Positions 15,938 to 29,421 of a stretch of 52,769 bases of DNA are shown here, piece after piece. Numbering within the stretch: position 1 is the first letter of the stretch; every line of letters begins with the position of its first letter. This stretch comes from Legionellaceae bacterium (lineage in GTDB: Bacteria; Pseudomonadota; Gammaproteobacteria; UBA12402): assembly GCA_002707695.1 (NCBI GenBank), contig PANR01000047.1, positions 1 through 52,769 of the forward strand, read 5' to 3'. Made by a program: the position numbers and the translations under genes. The notes below the pieces were generated by a model. That model saw nothing but the letters and a program-made list of their open reading frames with translations, was not told the origin of the DNA and searched no databases.

Positions 15938-17116
15938 TTAAAGTGTTTCAATTTTCAAGAGCATTTTGTGCAAATTTTTTGCATTAATGAGGTTCACGCC
16001 GTTCACTTGCTGCTCCTCACCATTGTAAACCAAGAAAGCAATAAGCGCCCTTTCACCGACGAGCTTTTGGAAATGTTTAATGCCTTTCAGCAAGGCAGGC
16101 GTAAAGGTGGACGCTGATTTAATCTCTATCGGAATAAGCTTGTCATGGGTTTTAAAAATGACATCCACTTCATTTTGGTTGCTATCCCGATAAAAATATA
16201 AGTTGGCTTCTTTGCCTTGGTTGAATCGATATTTGAGTAATTCAAGAATGACAAAGTTTTCAAACAATGCGCCCCTCGAACGATCTGATTGTATTTGTTG
16301 CCAAGATTCAAACGCGCATAAGCTGCTGGCGATACCAACATCGGTAAAATAAAGTTTGGGCGTTTTGATAATCCGCTTTCCAAAATTTTCAAAATAAGGT
16401 GGTAGTTGAAAGGTTAAATAGGAGGCGCTGAGTATTGACATCCAATTTCTAATAGTGCCTTGCGAAACACCCACATCATTGCTCAAGCTTTCTCGGTTAA
16501 TCACACTACTAATTCTGCCAGCACAAAGACGAATAAAGCCCCGAAACCGATCTAAATCCTTAATATTCACAAGTTGTCGGACATCTCTTTCCACATACGT
16601 TTTGAGATAATTGCGGGCATGTGTTTTAGGATCGAGATGGTGTTGGTAAATGGCGGGATAAAAACCGTTAAATAAATATTCATCAATTGAGAGTTCAACG
16701 TCATTATTGTTGAGTTCGGCCATTGATACTGGGAGCAATTCGAGTATTGCGGTTCGCCCAGCTAACGATTGTGAGATAGCTTCGGTGAGCTGTAGTTGAT
16801 GGCTGCCAGTTAATATGAATGAACCAGGCACGCGGTTTTCGTCCACAGCTGTCTGTATGTAAGAAAGCAATTCTGGTGATCGCTGAATTTCATCAAGTAT
16901 TACGCCCTTTTGTAAATCAAGCGAGTCAAAAAAGGCGCGAGGATCGGCCTCAATAAGTGCGCGAGTGTCTGGGTTTTCAAGATTGTAATAGGGTCGGTTG
17001 GGGTAAGCCGAGCGAGCCAGCGTTGTTTTGCCTGCCTGCCTGGGTCCCATGATGGTGACAATGGGATATTGCGACATGAGGCGCTCAAATTCTGTTTGGA
17101 TTGATCGCTGAAACAT
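15938..17116 (-). CDS. AAA_14-type ATPase with C-terminal DUF4143 (PD-(D/E)xK-like) domain, paralogue A
   Basis: Walker A GPRQAGKTT, Walker B VILDEIQR, C-terminal EVDVIF...IPIEIKS nuclease-like motif. Confidence 0.85.
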   Translation of the reverse strand: MFQRSIQTEFERLMSQYPIVTIMGPRQAGKTTLARSAYPNRPYYNLENPDTRALIEADPRAFFDSLDLQKGVILDEIQRSPELLSYIQTAVDENRVPGSFILTGSHQLQLTEAISQSLAGRTAILELLPVSMAELNNNDVELSIDEYLFNGFYPAIYQHHLDPKTHARNYLKTYVERDVRQLVNIKDLDRFRGFIRLCAGRISSVINRESLSNDVGVSQGTIRNWMSILSASYLTFQLPPYFENFGKRIIKTPKLYFTDVGIASSLCAFESWQQIQSDRSRGALFENFVILELLKYRFNQGKEANLYFYRDSNQNEVDVIFKTHDKLIPIEIKSASTFTPALLKGIKHFQKLVGERALIAFLVYNGEEQQVNGVNLINAKNLHKMLLKIETL

Positions 17117-19510: not shown

Positions 19511-20665
19511 CTAAGCGCTTTGATTAATTGAGCCGTAACTTAAAACAGCAAAGCCGTCTTCATCGTCTTCATTTACAACGTTACAGCCAAGCAGTGCTTC
19601 GTTATCATAAGCCGATCCATTTTCTTTATTAAACCCAGCCATTTCATCCAGTGCTTCTTTTCCTTCACGCACTTCGGAGAGATATACACCCAATGCAACA
19701 CAACAAAAAACTGCGCTGGCAAGCGTAGCGCTCATTATTTCATTATCATCCCACAGGGCAAAATAAACAGATATGGCTGAGGCAATGCCGTGCAAAGGCG
19801 CCATTAAATTAGTGGCAACTTTCAATGTGCCCGCGCGGCAAGGCGTGAGTTTGAAATTGTCGTTAAAGCTATCTTGCTCGCCAATTAAATTAGCCAAATG
19901 ATCACGCGAGTGTTTGCCTTCAAATAAATAAACTTGCATTAACAGGATAGTTGTCAGCGGCAAACCGACAGTAATACCTGCTGCTATAGCAATCATTTTT
20001 GCCATGAAATGCTTGGCAAGATAGTGAATGGCCTTTTTAGGCATGAGTAATGCTAAACCTAATAAGTCATCAATCAAAACATGTTCAATTGATCCGATTA
20101 ACGTAAAAATTTCTCTTGCGCGTTTTGTGGCAACAGGATAATACATGGATGCATAAAATGGTGTTTTGTAACCAGCATTGTTAGCAATGATTTCATAGGC
20201 TTCATAAATTTCATTACTCATCGCAAAACTTTGTTTAATAAATAAGTCGACAGCTAAAATGCTCCAAAAGTAAGTGCGGCTGAGTTCAAGTTCATATAAG
20301 TTTTGCGTGGCCACTAATAAAAAATAGCGGTTAATAAAGGTGGTTAGCATGTTGCATAAGAAATAAATCGATTGAAAAACACCCGCTCGACATGGCTTTT
20401 TTTCATCAGCAATCTCATCGCTCTCTTCAGCATCAGTGCTCATCCCGCGTATAATAGATTGACCCTGAAAAGCGTAGCTTTCATAAAATTCAATGCAGCC
20501 TGTGATGGCAACAGCGGTTGCCCTTTCCCATAATTCGAAGTGCTGCCGTGTGCTGTAAAGCGTGTCGCAGGCCGTAGATAAAGCTTGGCCGAAGCTATAA
20601 AGAGGTGGCAGTAGCGCGTAGCAACACCATTGACTAGTGTTTTTTCTCATTATTATTCTCCCCAC
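19511..20665 (-). CDS. Orphan multi-pass membrane protein (candidate effector or vacuolar membrane protein)
   Basis: Several hydrophobic segments, an internal PCRAG duplication and an acidic C-terminal EDDED block. I recognise no family. The start may be the second Met (20650). Confidence 0.55.
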   Translation of the reverse strand: MGRIIMRKNTSQWCCYALLPPLYSFGQALSTACDTLYSTRQHFELWERATAVAITGCIEFYESYAFQGQSIIRGMSTDAEESDEIADEKKPCRAGVFQSIYFLCNMLTTFINRYFLLVATQNLYELELSRTYFWSILAVDLFIKQSFAMSNEIYEAYEIIANNAGYKTPFYASMYYPVATKRAREIFTLIGSIEHVLIDDLLGLALLMPKKAIHYLAKHFMAKMIAIAAGITVGLPLTTILLMQVYLFEGKHSRDHLANLIGEQDSFNDNFKLTPCRAGTLKVATNLMAPLHGIASAISVYFALWDDNEIMSATLASAVFCCVALGVYLSEVREGKEALDEMAGFNKENGSAYDNEALLGCNVVNEDDEDGFAVLSYGSINQSA

Positions 20666-21323: not shown

Positions 21324-22610
21324 TTAAGGTATATTGCTAGTTTTTTTTAAATTTAGCATCCATTTCCATGTTGGGAGTATATGAATGGTAAAATGTTCGT
21401 TTGTTATTGTCTCTGTTTCATCTTCTGTTAATAAATAAACGTTTTTTAATTTGTATTTTTCGGCGGCTTCAACGACCCCATTTAGCTCTCGCTCTTTGTT
21501 ACCATCATGGATATGTTGGCAGACCTGAATGGCGCTGGTAATGGTTTTGCCTTGTCTCGTAATAAAGTCGCATTCATATTTGTCACGATGAAAATAAATT
21601 TCCGTGTGCTCTTGCCTGGACAGTTCTAGAAAGACGCTGTTTTCTAGAAATCGACCATAATCGTCACTAAATCTAAAACCAATAGCTTGTGACAGACCAG
21701 AGTCAATAAAATAAGCTTTCTTAGATGAGGCGAGCTGTTTTTTTAATGAATAATCATAGCGGTTAATGAAAAAGCATAAAAAGCTATTGCTTAAATATTC
21801 ACAATATTCTGAAACAGTTGTTGTGCTTCCCAGACCTAACATCTTTTTAAGTTTGTTGTAACTGACATCTTTCCCAACGTTGCTTGATAGATAAAGAGAA
21901 AGTTCGCGCAGTGCTTTTTCATTGTTTATTTTGTATCTTGTAATGATGTCTCTATAAATAATGTTGTTATAGAGCGAGATAAGATATTCCTGGCTGTTAT
22001 TAGTAATATATTCAGGAAAACCACCTTGGGAGATGTATTCGTTGAATAATGTTTTGAAGTATACGTTTTCAGTGGTTGTTAAATCATCGCTTATTTCAAT
22101 GCTGTTCTTGCCAGTTTTTGACAAGACAAATTCTTTGAAAGAGAACGGATGCATGCGTAGAGTAACGTGTCTTCCCGTTAGGCGTGTTCCAAGTTCGCTG
22201 CTGAACATACTGGCGTTCGATCCAGTAATAAAAACTTTATTGCCCTGGTCGTGAAGTCGGCGAATGAACCGCTCCCAATCAGGGACGTTTTGTATTTCAT
22301 CAAAATAGAATGTCTGTTGCTCGCCATATAATTCGATGAAAACTTCGTATAAAATCTGAAAATCTTCAACTTTAAAACTAAGCAAACGTTCATCATCAAA
22401 ATTAAGGTAATAATTTTTCTCAGGAAGCTGCTCTCTTATTAGCTGAAGCTCGGTGGACTTTCCACATCGCCTAATTCCTGTAATGATGACAACCTGGTTG
22501 ATTTTAGTCAGTTCAAGAAGCTTGTTGTGCACGTCTCTTGGGATCGCACGTTTCTGAAAAACTTGTCTTTGTTGGTCAATGATGATTTGTCTTAGGCTGG
22601 ACTTGTCCAT
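21324..22610 (-). CDS. AAA_14-type ATPase with DUF4143 domain, paralogue B (nuclease-like motif degenerate)
   Basis: Walker A GIRRCGKST and Walker B FYFDEIQNV. C-terminal ECDFIT...SAIQVCQ stands where paralogues A and C have ExK (IEIK). Visibly more AT-rich than its neighbours. Confidence 0.85.
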   Translation of the reverse strand: MDKSSLRQIIIDQQRQVFQKRAIPRDVHNKLLELTKINQVVIITGIRRCGKSTELQLIREQLPEKNYYLNFDDERLLSFKVEDFQILYEVFIELYGEQQTFYFDEIQNVPDWERFIRRLHDQGNKVFITGSNASMFSSELGTRLTGRHVTLRMHPFSFKEFVLSKTGKNSIEISDDLTTTENVYFKTLFNEYISQGGFPEYITNNSQEYLISLYNNIIYRDIITRYKINNEKALRELSLYLSSNVGKDVSYNKLKKMLGLGSTTTVSEYCEYLSNSFLCFFINRYDYSLKKQLASSKKAYFIDSGLSQAIGFRFSDDYGRFLENSVFLELSRQEHTEIYFHRDKYECDFITRQGKTITSAIQVCQHIHDGNKERELNGVVEAAEKYKLKNVYLLTEDETETITNEHFTIHILPTWKWMLNLKKTSNIP

Positions 22611-25040: not shown

Positions 25041-26255
25041 ATGTTGCTCATGTATAAACAAAGATTTTTTGCCACGCTTTCTTTTCTCGCCATATTAATC
25101 CCCGCCTATGCGTGGTCTCAGTCTTCTCCAGTTTCCTTAATTGCTACGACCAATCAAGGCACTTACAGAACAGCGGATAACGGGCGTAGTTGGCAATCAG
25201 TTTCTCAGGATACCCCCAAAATCTGCATGGTAATGCCCGTGATGACAAAGCATGGCAAGCAGGCAAATGATTTAAGAAAGCGCGCTTCTCATCAAACACG
25301 TGCGTTTTTTCCTGAGGCGAGCTGTCAGAATCAGGTGATCGCAGGCGGCGCTGCTCGGGCGCTATCTGACCAATCGATGTATGTCAAAACAGGCACAGGA
25401 TATTCCAAAATTCCGTTGAAGCAGGTCGTGGGCGCGCCCGTCGCGTCAGTTAAAATGGCTCAGTTGTCGCCCAGCGCTAAAACGCTCGCCATTGTTTTCA
25501 AAAATCAACAGGGCGCCGATCAACTCGGTGTTGTAAACGCACAGACAATGACACCTCGGTATCACCCCGTAACATTGAAAGTGAATCTTGGAGAGCCTCA
25601 ACAGTTTATTTTTTCCCACTCTCAAGACTCGATGCCCAGTCCTTCAACAGTGATGTTAGCAAGTGCAGCACCAGCACCAACGAATGCATTTAGCGCGCCT
25701 GCTAGTGTCGGTGCATTGGTGGGTAGTAATGCTACGGCAGCAGTTGTGGTCAGTGGCCAAACGTTGAAAGTTATTCCTAAATCTGGGGGTGGTAGGCATG
25801 CTTCACAAGGCCACAATACGCAGCCTTATCTTACTCGCTTCCATCGTTATCATTCGCAGGGCAACGCTGCTCAACCAAACGTTTACATCCCTTATGATCC
25901 CTATAGCAACTATTCTCATGACAGAGTGTTAGCGGCGACAAGGAGTGATGATGGACAGAGGCTCATCACAATTGAGCGCAGGTATGGTAGGGGCAGGCGG
26001 TCTTCACAACATCATTATGATGTTGTTACCAGGCATTATAACGCTGAAAACCATCAAACGAGCGTGCATAGAGAGTATGTGGCCGCGGGAGCTTTGCAGC
26101 GTGGGGTGGGGGTTAGGTTTGGCGATGGTCGACCTGCAGTCGTTCGTTATGATGGCAAACACCCTGTCCGAGTCAATCAGCCTGGGTATCAACCTGTTTA
26201 TCTTCCAAATAGCATGATGGTTAAATATATGCAGTTTGATACGGTTTCTCATTAG
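25041..26255 (+). CDS. Secreted hypothetical protein with one Asp-box (BNR) motif and a His/Tyr/Arg-rich C-terminus
   Basis: Signal-peptide-like N-terminus (FFATLSFLAILIPAYAWSQ). TADNGRSW fits SxDxGxTW. I recognise no other family. Confidence 0.55.
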   Translation: MLLMYKQRFFATLSFLAILIPAYAWSQSSPVSLIATTNQGTYRTADNGRSWQSVSQDTPKICMVMPVMTKHGKQANDLRKRASHQTRAFFPEASCQNQVIAGGAARALSDQSMYVKTGTGYSKIPLKQVVGAPVASVKMAQLSPSAKTLAIVFKNQQGADQLGVVNAQTMTPRYHPVTLKVNLGEPQQFIFSHSQDSMPSPSTVMLASAAPAPTNAFSAPASVGALVGSNATAAVVVSGQTLKVIPKSGGGRHASQGHNTQPYLTRFHRYHSQGNAAQPNVYIPYDPYSNYSHDRVLAATRSDDGQRLITIERRYGRGRRSSQHHYDVVTRHYNAENHQTSVHREYVAAGALQRGVGVRFGDGRPAVVRYDGKHPVRVNQPGYQPVYLPNSMMVKYMQFDTVSH

Positions 26256-27699: not shown

Positions 27700-29309
27700 A
27701 AATTTTTCGTTTAATTCACATTGGGTTGGTTTTCGCGCGTTATCGCATTGATGGTATTGTGCTAACCACCCCATGGTTTTATCCGTTTCGATTTTTGCGA
27801 TTGCTCAATCCTTTTCAATATATTCCAGGTCAAAAACTTTCTCGTGGTGAGCGAATTCGCATTGCTTTAGAAAAACTGGGGCCTATTTTTGTTAAGTTTG
27901 GGCAAGTGTTGTCGACACGTCGCGATTGGTTGCCAGACGATATTGCTAGTGAATTGGAAAAGCTGCAAGATAATGTTAAGCCTTTTCCAGGCAAAAAAGC
28001 ACGTGAAATCATCCGCAAGAGTTTAAAAAAACCCACTCATCAATTGTTTAAACATTTTTCTGATACCGCACTTGCTTCAGCCAGCATTGCGCAAGTACAC
28101 GCGGCAGAATTAATGGACGGCACGCCCATTGTTGTTAAGGTGCTCCGCCCAAAAGTTGAAAAACAAGTTCAGCGTGACATGAGCCTGCTTAAACTTGCTG
28201 CCAGATTTTGTCAGGCAGTATTGCCCAATGGGCAAAATGCTCGTCCAATGGCCGTAGTAGCTGAGTTTGAGCGGCATTTAAAAAATGAACTCGATTTGAC
28301 ATTAGAAGCAGCTAACGCTGCCCAGCTTGCACGTAACCTAGAAAAAGACGATTTGGTTGGCATTCCGGCGGTGTACTGGGATTACTGTGCGAAAAACGTG
28401 TTGGCGTTAGAGCGCGTTGACGGCATCCCCATTTCACATATGAAACAATTAAAATCATCGGATATCGATTTAAAACAATTAGCTTCAAGTGCTATTGATA
28501 TGTTTTTTACACAGGTGTTTCGAGATAACTTCTTTCACGCTGATTTGCACCCGGGTAATATTTTTGTGGCCAAGCGCGCGTCGGGCAAACCCAAATTTTT
28601 ATTAGTTGATTTTGGTGTCGCTGGCACATTAAGCGCAACCGATCAGCGTTACATCGCTGAAAATTTATTGGCTTTTTTCAAACGTGACTATCAACGCGTT
28701 GCTGATTTGCATGTTGCTTCAGGTTGGCTGCCGCCTGATACTCGTGCTCATGAATTTGCCATCCAAATACGCGCTATCTCAGAACCTTTTTTCGAGAAAC
28801 CACTTAAAGATATTTCGATTGGCTTACTATTGCTGCGTTTGTTTCAAACTGCCAGACGGTTTAATATTATTATTCAGCCGCAATTAATTTTGCTTCAGAA
28901 AAATTTATTGCATATCGAAAGTATTAGTCGCCAACTCGATCCGGATCTTGATTTATGGCAGACTGCAAAACCATTTTTAGAACGTTGGCTCAAGACACAA
29001 GTGGGTCCGCGAGCTGTGCTTCGTAAAGTCTGTCAGCAATTACCTTATTGGGGCGAAAAGCTACCCGAACTGCCCGAGTTGGTTTACCAGTTTTTACAAC
29101 AATCTACATCGCCAACCCCTTCGCATGCTCCACAAACACAATATAGTAAAGCGCCTGCTGCACGCGGTGGTTTAATTGCTGGCATTATGTTTCTTTTTGC
29201 TAGCACGCTTGTGTTTGCAACTGCGCCCCAGGCTCACATTGCTGGTTGGGTGCTCTTTGGTGTCGGCGTGGGTAGTGCGGTGCTGAGTTTTTTAAAGCGG
29301 CTTGCTTAA
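27696..29309 (+). CDS. ubiB: Ubiquinone biosynthesis protein kinase-like UbiB
   Basis: ABC1/UbiB signature (LGPIFVKFGQVLSTRRD, ASIAQVH, HADLHPGNIF) and C-terminal TM segments. Confidence 0.93.
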   Translation: MKIFRLIHIGLVFARYRIDGIVLTTPWFYPFRFLRLLNPFQYIPGQKLSRGERIRIALEKLGPIFVKFGQVLSTRRDWLPDDIASELEKLQDNVKPFPGKKAREIIRKSLKKPTHQLFKHFSDTALASASIAQVHAAELMDGTPIVVKVLRPKVEKQVQRDMSLLKLAARFCQAVLPNGQNARPMAVVAEFERHLKNELDLTLEAANAAQLARNLEKDDLVGIPAVYWDYCAKNVLALERVDGIPISHMKQLKSSDIDLKQLASSAIDMFFTQVFRDNFFHADLHPGNIFVAKRASGKPKFLLVDFGVAGTLSATDQRYIAENLLAFFKRDYQRVADLHVASGWLPPDTRAHEFAIQIRAISEPFFEKPLKDISIGLLLLRLFQTARRFNIIIQPQLILLQKNLLHIESISRQLDPDLDLWQTAKPFLERWLKTQVGPRAVLRKVCQQLPYWGEKLPELPELVYQFLQQSTSPTPSHAPQTQYSKAPAARGGLIAGIMFLFASTLVFATAPQAHIAGWVLFGVGVGSAVLSFLKRLA

Positions 29310-29342
29310 TCCTTGTTCTAAAATTTCTCTTGTTAAGAAACA

Positions 29343-29362
29343 CTTAATAATTCCTTAATTTT
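29343..29362 (+). promoter_or_regulatory. Tandem CTTAAT box (PmrA-type) upstream of the GDSL lipase gene
   Basis: CTTAATAAT-TC-CTTAATTTT. It is 19/20 identical to 31842-31861 and fits cTTAATatT-N2-cTTAATatT / TTAA-N7-TTAA. Confidence 0.6.
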
Positions 29363-29421
29363 CATCATATACACTCGAGAACATTAACATCACGTCCAGC
29401 CAGAATAAAAGGAGGTCTGTC

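Follow-up and report, generated by a model that had tools for sequence, protein, structure and literature searches.

Two PmrA-type promoter modules precede a lipase gene and an orphan gene, both candidate effectors, in an uncultured marine gammaproteobacterium

Few sequence signals allow Dot/Icm substrates to be predicted in Legionella and Coxiella, and PmrA elements are one of them. The element itself was reportedly described both for Legionella pneumophila and for Coxiella burnetii by Zusman and co-workers in 2007. As a matrix for L. pneumophila PmrA (Burstein et al., 2009, PMC2701608; supplementary file 6, labelled Table S5) it consists of 9 nt, 2 free positions, 9 nt, 7 free positions and a TAtAAT hexamer. 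Such a box predicts a translocated effector but does not prove one: among the C. burnetii genes that have the element, some are not translocated (PMC9934583). The enterobacterial pmra-box consists of two XTTAAY hexamers with 5 nt between them and overlaps the -35 element (PMC10570014); the half-site preferred by PmrA is CTTAAT (PMC3973317). In a structure obtained by cryo-EM for the PmrA dimer with the sigma-70 holoenzyme, the head-to-tail DNA-binding domains touch region 4 of sigma-70 and beta', and the same paper discusses the comparison with PhoB pho-box promoters such as pstS, where a direct-repeat box bound by an OmpR/PhoB-family dimer replaces the -35 element (PMC10570014).

Here we describe two modules of this kind in a 52.8-kb stretch of DNA (the window, meaning the whole stretch that was analysed), whose host is an uncultured marine gammaproteobacterium. 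The modules are 33 nt each, at 29343-29375 and 31842-31874, 2.5 kb apart. Both are intergenic, lie on the strand of the downstream gene and belong to the share of the window, about 10%, that long ORFs leave uncovered. With the Legionella/Coxiella element they share the tandem cTTAATatT with its 2-nt gap, the 7 nt to the -10 hexamer, the orientation on the gene strand and the position before effector-like genes, which here have the status of candidates. They differ from it in their host, in the -10 hexamer (TACACT and CACACT, where the matrix has TAtAAT), in a third in-phase distal half-site at each site, and in positions 7-11 (AATTC), which are identical in the two copies. With the enterobacterial pmra-box (Salmonella, E. 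coli and Klebsiella pbgP, ugd and pmrCAB) they share CTTAAT-N5-CTTAAT at both sites and a box that overlaps or replaces the -35 element, relative to a putative -10 position. However, both half-sites are perfect CTTAAT here, whereas the pbgP box combines CTTAAT with CCTAAG, and the enterobacterial targets are LPS-modification and envelope genes (pbgP/arn, ugd, eptA), unlike the boxed genes of the window. Pho-box promoters have the same general architecture but a different signal and a different half-site, of the CTGTCAT type. Judged by sequence, the modules thus appear to extend a known regulatory signal to an uncultured bacterium, with three phased half-sites and a (T/C)ACACT -10 as minor variations.

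Table 1. Coordinates (window positions) of the features in and around the two modules.
Feature	Position	Strand	Remark
Distal degenerate half-site, site 1: GTTAAGAAA	29332-29340	+	in-phase TTAA-N7-TTAA, 11 bp 5' of half-site 1
Half-site 1, site 1: CTTAATAAT	29343-29351	+	matrix positions 1-9
Gap of site 1 box: TC	29352-29353	+	
Half-site 2, site 1: CTTAATTTT	29354-29362	+	matrix match; box at about -39 to -20 (predicted), in place of a -35 element
Putative -10 hexamer, site 1: TACACT	29370-29375	+	7 nt 3' of box; matrix positions 28-33
Shine-Dalgarno sequence AGGAGG	29410-29415	+	6 nt 5' of lipase ATG
GDSL/SGNH lipase, 529 aa	29422-31011	+	PF00657, E 4e-16
Sigma-70 promoter of toxin-antitoxin pair, TTGACC-16-TATAAT with TG	31041-31068	+	near-consensus, extended -10
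phd/yefM antitoxin	31104-31355	+	between the two boxed promoters
PIN/VapC toxin	31355-31783	+	between the two boxed promoters
Distal third half-site, site 2: ATTAATAAA	31831-31839	+	11 bp upstream of box, in phase
Site 2 box: CTTAATAAT-TC-CTTAATGTT, whole CTTAATAATTCCTTAATGTT	31842-31861	+	
Putative -10 hexamer, site 2: CACACT	31869-31874	+	register as in site 1
Orphan protein, 1212 aa	31940-35578	+	Ser/Glu-rich disordered C-terminus; gene call agrees in L007
Ankyrin-repeat protein, 239 aa	35587-36306	+	own AGGAGG; start 8 nt past stop of 1212-aa gene

The first-pass annotation had pointed to a tandem CTTAAT box at 29343, about 60 nt upstream of a GDSL lipase gene. Its coordinates (29343-29362 for the whole site 1 box) are exact, and the distance from the box to the lipase ATG is 59 nt, with 47 nt from the -10 hexamer to the same ATG. 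It had also described a conserved ACACTC 9 nt downstream, as at the second site. ACACTC is indeed found at 29371-29376, after an 8-nt gap (29363-29370) and hence at offset 9 from the end of the box, and at 31870-31875 with equal spacing at site 2. The equal spacing stands, but as a separate conserved motif ACACTC was rejected, since it coincides with the 3' portion of the -10 hexamer that occupies matrix positions 28-33.

The two hexamers are weak, matching TATAAT at four of six positions (TACACT) and at three of six (CACACT); both retain A at position 2 and T at position 6. No -35 element is found at either box, and a generic sigma-70 consensus scan calls no -35/-10 pair there. Transcription is predicted to start at about 29381-29383 for site 1 and about 31880-31883 for site 2, where the -10 hexamer lies 66 nt from the ATG of the 1212-aa ORF. 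Because a third, more degenerate half-site stands exactly 11 bp 5' at both sites, there are three phased repeats per promoter. At site 1 this distal half-site scores 14.8 bits as a shifted box with the PmrA matrix and forms the start of a 44-nt repeat (D1); it could provide an alternative register or a place for a further protomer. An overlapping AT-rich palindrome (TTAGCTAAAATTTT / AAAATTTTTGCTAA, 31774-31799) covers the vapC stop, approximately 40 nt 5' of the distal half-site of site 2. A search of the window for structured RNAs and tRNAs gave none, which excludes the box as part of a known RNA element.

How unusual the two modules are can be judged from their scores. When the window is scanned on both strands with the full L. 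pneumophila matrix, which comes from a different genus than the host, the sites score 24.5 bits (site 1) and 21.9 bits (site 2), compared with 12.8 bits for the next independent match and a window mean of -23 (sd 8). The box alone scores 21.3 bits at site 1 and 21.75 bits at site 2 out of a maximum of 25.3 for this matrix, and each site keeps 18 of the 20 consensus positions of cTTAATatT-N2-cTTAATatT. Both repeats, the 2-nt gap and the 7 nt to the -10 hexamer fit the matrix, and at the level of sequence the PmrA-type identity given to the box at the outset is borne out. Simpler patterns tell the same story: TTAAT-N6-TTAAT has three matches in the window against 0.44 expected, all of them at the two sites, and the 20-nt consensus with up to three mismatches has two matches against 0.13 expected. 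No further sites are present in the window, the other matrix matches scoring at most 13.5 bits and the other TTAA-N7-TTAA matches lying inside genes. First-order Markov simulations of the window (n = 1000) reached a best score of at least 21.9 bits in three cases and of at least 24.5 bits in one, and the second-best simulated score was 17.2 bits or lower in all 1000.

The two sites are also related to each other. The modules form a 44-nt direct repeat with 35 of 44 nucleotides identical (80%), and because the copies are just 2.5 kb apart, a common origin is possible and they are not fully independent observations. Within the 33-nt frame, five of the seven mismatches fall in the nine matrix-neutral positions (P approximately 0.009), a distribution that would be expected from constraint on the contact positions.

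The explanation that in our view accounts best for these data, and that we consider quite probable, is a site for a PmrA-family regulator that activates both promoters. The box-to-(-10) geometry is the same as for enterobacterial PmrA, so both modules can be read as activator-dependent sigma-70 promoters. Specifically, a phosphorylated dimer of a PmrA-family protein (OmpR/PhoB class, winged helix) would bind the two CTTAAT half-sites head-to-tail with a spacing of 11 bp, on a box that stands where the -35 hexamer would normally be, and would bring RNA polymerase to the weak -10 hexamer 7 nt downstream. From site 1 this would drive the GDSL lipase gene, and from site 2 the 1212-aa orphan gene and the ankyrin gene, which is probably co-transcribed with it. 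In a further step, the host would be a marine Legionellales-like bacterium, the regulator the counterpart of Legionella and Coxiella PmrA, and the lipase, orphan and ankyrin proteins candidate Dot/Icm substrates in a virulence regulon. We infer binding, activation and the transcription starts, and likewise that the host has PmrA and Dot/Icm. For the full reading, i.e., a PmrA-family site that is activating and part of a Dot/Icm-linked regulon, our confidence is more limited, though on balance we lean towards it.

The lipase gives sub-threshold NCBIfam matches to the models for Legionella PlaA/PlaC and Salmonella SseJ and matches the PDB entry 8a24, 'Lysophospholipase A', with E 1.8e-13. It has no N-terminal signal peptide: the GDSL block begins at residue 22 and there is no hydrophobic leader. 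At the C-terminus it carries a low-complexity tail of approximately 130 residues, rich in Ala, Gln, Glu and Gly. Its homologues are few and at most 35% identical, and of the three named, two come from Legionella; the box is absent upstream of the homologue at all four loci that were looked at, two of which are Legionella. The 1212-aa protein belongs to no Pfam or NCBIfam family and has neither a PDB relative nor a homologue among 5.8 billion proteins. We treat the lipase as a candidate secreted effector and the orphan as a candidate effector. Lying between the two boxed promoters, the toxin-antitoxin pair has its own promoter (Table 1) and is outside the boxed regulon.

Two side observations concern these genes. 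In the last SGNH block of the lipase, residues 378-384 (30553-30573) read FWNPVHP; the Asn takes the place of an Asp in L. pneumophila PlaA (FFDLVHP). The PDB 'Thermolabile hemolysin' chains (6jl2 and related entries) likewise have Asn (FWNVTHP), and the Asn may be a normal variant of the subfamily. The window also holds a second type II toxin-antitoxin pair, MazE-like/PIN, at 1692-2332 (+).

The layout of the window sites can be used as a probe. The pattern derived from them, CTTAAT-NNT-NN-CTTAAT-NNT-N8-ACACT, was scanned against metagenomes and gave 55 loci with 30 distinct 33-mers in 28 families, two of which are the window's own sites. About five of the 28 families lie inside long ORFs and the rest are non-coding; in 16 families outside the window a same-strand ORF starts 13-130 nt downstream. 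Positions that the pattern leaves unspecified echo the L. pneumophila matrix: a T precedes ACACT in 17/28 families, position 7 is A or G in 21/28 and position 8 is T in 16/28.

One of these loci is in an uncultured bacterium with a GC content of 0.49 (L062), where CTTAATGCTCCCTTAATGTT-N7-TACACT stands 23 nt before icmT (region 1080-1240, minus strand). The icmT gene (848-1105; NF038220, 93 bits with a cut-off of 40) is followed directly by icmS (503-847; PDB 5x90, E 1e-30). Here a Dot/Icm operon that belongs to neither cultured Legionella nor cultured Coxiella has a PmrA-type box, and the occurrence of the 33-nt layout before an icmT-icmS operon in another uncultured bacterium gives independent support to the PmrA-type identity proposed for the window's box. 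A tblastn search with DotM, DotL, IcmT and IcmS against the other scan loci returned self matches only, and the neighbour genes on three of the contigs (L026, L050 and L064) are housekeeping genes.

Other genes downstream of scan sites include an OmpR-family response-regulator gene (L029/L057), the UDP-glucose dehydrogenase gene ugd (L037/L059), a YceI gene and, on the Tara scaffold L064, the gene for an ankyrin protein; seven of the downstream genes are orphans. The box also precedes an HlyD-ABC-FtsX (MacAB-like) efflux operon in three unrelated contigs (L033, L038 and L044). Its proteins share approximately 50% identity with those of the OEP-HlyD-ABC-MacB operon that the window itself contains (42792-47424) and at which the box is absent. 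In a group of ten human-gut contigs with identical sites (L013 and nine others), the box at 5387-5419 is followed by a 30-aa hydrophobic ORF, MQKLTNREYLAIATAFVIVVAFLHQWVLTF, at 5447-5539, convergent with the genes for a 365-aa protein and for BasR/PmrA, the latter a near-perfect K. pneumoniae match (E 1e-132). By its BasR protein the locus is a Klebsiella-type basRS; an E. coli match for it was not found. The short ORF may presumably be a PmrR-like small membrane peptide. At one further site (L015, 933-965, the same in L021) three phased half-sites, ATTAAG, CTTAAT and CTTAAT, precede a CACACT -10, resembling site 2. No ORF of at least 50 aa starts within 400 nt downstream of the L015 site, and it could drive a small protein or RNA.

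Because the scan sites are mostly non-coding and gene-proximal and their targets include icmTS and PmrA/BasR genes, the layout is best taken as a genuine and widespread promoter type of the PmrA family. At least one uncultured bacterium has it before Dot/Icm genes, and elsewhere it stands before classical PmrA/BasR targets.

We now turn to the genomic setting. Upstream of site 1, a ubiE-ubiJ-ubiB run closes with ubiB, which ends at 29309. One relative (L074, 1655-2947) has a UbiB in the same 90%-identity cluster, and after its ubiB come a CsbD-like gene and an unrelated gene of 245 aa; lipase and box are absent there, and homology to window positions 29300-36306 ends at the ubiB stop codon. 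Since a close relative has other genes after ubiB, the boxed genes sit in a variable segment. From 29300 to 36306 (lipase, phd/vapC, 1212-aa orphan and ankyrin gene) it looks like an island-like insertion, and effector genes are often located in variable regions. Marine metagenome assemblies, one from a Tara Oceans run among them, contain the lipase gene and its neighbours in identical form; all assemblies of the population are identical over both sites, and among those that contain the contig none reaches past the window. The ENA assemblies ERZ908547 (run ERR599005), ERZ27286431 and ERZ837273 contain it.

The affiliation of the host is less clear-cut. UbiB relatives in a scan of contigs from GTDB representative genomes reach 54% identity at most. 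The best named relatives of its UvrD, at approximately 63%, are unclassified Gammaproteobacteria, Chromatiales and Ectothiorhodospira, and not Legionellales. In an unbootstrapped neighbour-joining tree of the top 120 UvrD matches, two proteins (P0013 and P0014) pair with the UvrD of the window and with that of its 89% sister; P0013 is on a contig (L010) that also encodes dotM (E 4e-90) and dotL (E 1e-123), as compared with L. pneumophila IcmP and IcmO. The UvrD of this dotLM contig is 68% identical to that of the window, and no strong box was found on the contig. A type IVB system is present in almost all Legionellales, and Tara Oceans MAGs fall within the Legionellaceae (Hugoson et al., 2022, PMC8896642). 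The 52.8-kb window itself contains no pmrA/pmrB, no response-regulator gene of any kind and no dot/icm genes. The named UvrD relatives and the dot/icm-free window weigh against the full reading. The leaderless lipase, the total orphan, the ankyrin protein, a eukaryotic-type kinase in the window and the UvrD clade with the dotL/dotM contig are host-association signals that would count for it.

What, then, do the boxes report on? They might be real sites of the PmrA/BasR/QseB family in a regulon unrelated to Dot/Icm, serving envelope, metal or stress responses with the boxed genes as ordinary members. The hexamer repeat and the -35 overlap are identical to those of the enterobacterial pmra-box, and the scan layout precedes ugd, a response-regulator gene, HlyD-MacB operons, a YceI gene and a Klebsiella-type basRS. 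Because the box is common to enterobacterial PmrA/BasR and to the basRS, ugd and regulator loci of the scan, it indicates a PmrA-family regulator and not Dot/Icm as such. Named UvrD relatives outside the Legionellales and a window without a dot/icm gene point in the same direction. However, the targets in the window are not envelope-modification genes: one is a lipase that has no leader and ends in a long disordered tail, one a 1212-aa orphan and one an ankyrin protein, and a eukaryotic-type kinase is found in the same window. In addition, dotL and dotM are found in the nearest UvrD clade for which there is genomic context, and the identical layout stands before icmTS elsewhere. On this evidence we think a regulon without Dot/Icm unlikely, but it is a serious contender. 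A part in a Dot/Icm-linked regulon is the reading that we retain, with the reservation already made.

Could the likeness to PmrA sites itself be misleading? A duplicated AT-rich promoter fragment, or chance, might have produced two plain constitutive promoters with no dedicated regulator: the copies are 2.5 kb apart in a 44-nt block at 80% identity, the intergenic DNA is AT-rich, the top score was reached in one of the 1000 simulations, and footprinting has no orthologous promoters to work with, as the population assemblies are identical and the close relative does not have the region. Yet both sites keep the exact box-N7-hexamer register, which no simulated second-best score (17.2 bits or less) approaches, and the mismatches gather in the neutral spacer. 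There is also no -35 element for activator-independent initiation, and the derived pattern retrieves mostly non-coding, gene-proximal sites, known PmrA targets among them; we regard duplication or chance as very unlikely. The consensus sites of PhoB, OmpR and PhoP differ from the CTTAAT half-site. Another binder, either a different regulator of the OmpR/PhoB class with sites phased at 11 bp or an AT-preferring nucleoid protein, possibly repressing and not activating, would fit the fact that many regulators of this class use 11-bp phased direct repeats. The three phased half-sites per promoter, which differ from the described two-repeat PmrA element, also speak for it. Against it, the half-site is exactly the CTTAAT that PmrA prefers and differs from the CpxR matrix in the same supplement (PMC2701608), and a box that lies over the -35 position, followed by a -10 at the right distance, has the geometry of activation (PMC10570014). 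Such a binder seems to us highly improbable, and a PmrA-family activator is what we assume in the following.

If the signal works in uncultured marine relatives as it does in Legionella and Coxiella, it would offer a cheap route to orphan-protein effector repertoires that homology searches miss, and the 1212-aa protein without homologues would have been flagged by its promoter alone. The coupling between regulator and secretion system would then seem to be old within the group. Since the hexamer repeat alone is common to enterobacterial PmrA/BasR regulons, effector prediction from it needs genomic context. The finding should be useful for effector discovery in uncultured relatives, and to a specialist it will be unsurprising. 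We also put forward, as a tentative idea that we would sooner bet against than for, that coupling of a PmrA-family regulator to Dot/Icm genes and their substrates reaches far past cultured Legionella and Coxiella into uncultured marine lineages, and that a 33-44-nt cassette connects lineage-specific genes of new acquisition to the virulence regulon, its unit being three phased half-sites and a (T/C)ACACT -10. If that coupling held, Dot/Icm operons and orphan effectors could be retrieved directly from metagenomes with a short DNA pattern, as the icmTS locus illustrates.

Some further features of the window are recorded here. The eukaryotic-type Ser/Thr kinase at 211-1479 (minus strand; Pkinase E 6e-36) has a coiled-coil tail and is effector-like; no PmrA-type box was found upstream of it, and all assemblies break just beyond it. 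Two ORFs have no Pfam or NCBIfam family: one of 384 aa at 19511-20665 (minus strand), and one of approximately 401 aa at 25041-26255 (plus strand), which has glmU on one side and ubiE on the other and for which other assemblies have a gene call. AAA_14/DUF4143 ATPases are encoded by three paralogous genes, at 15938-17116 (minus), 21324-22610 (minus) and 47527-48714 (plus), and related AAA_14/DUF4143 genes flank uvrD both in the dotLM contig and in the 89% sister contig.
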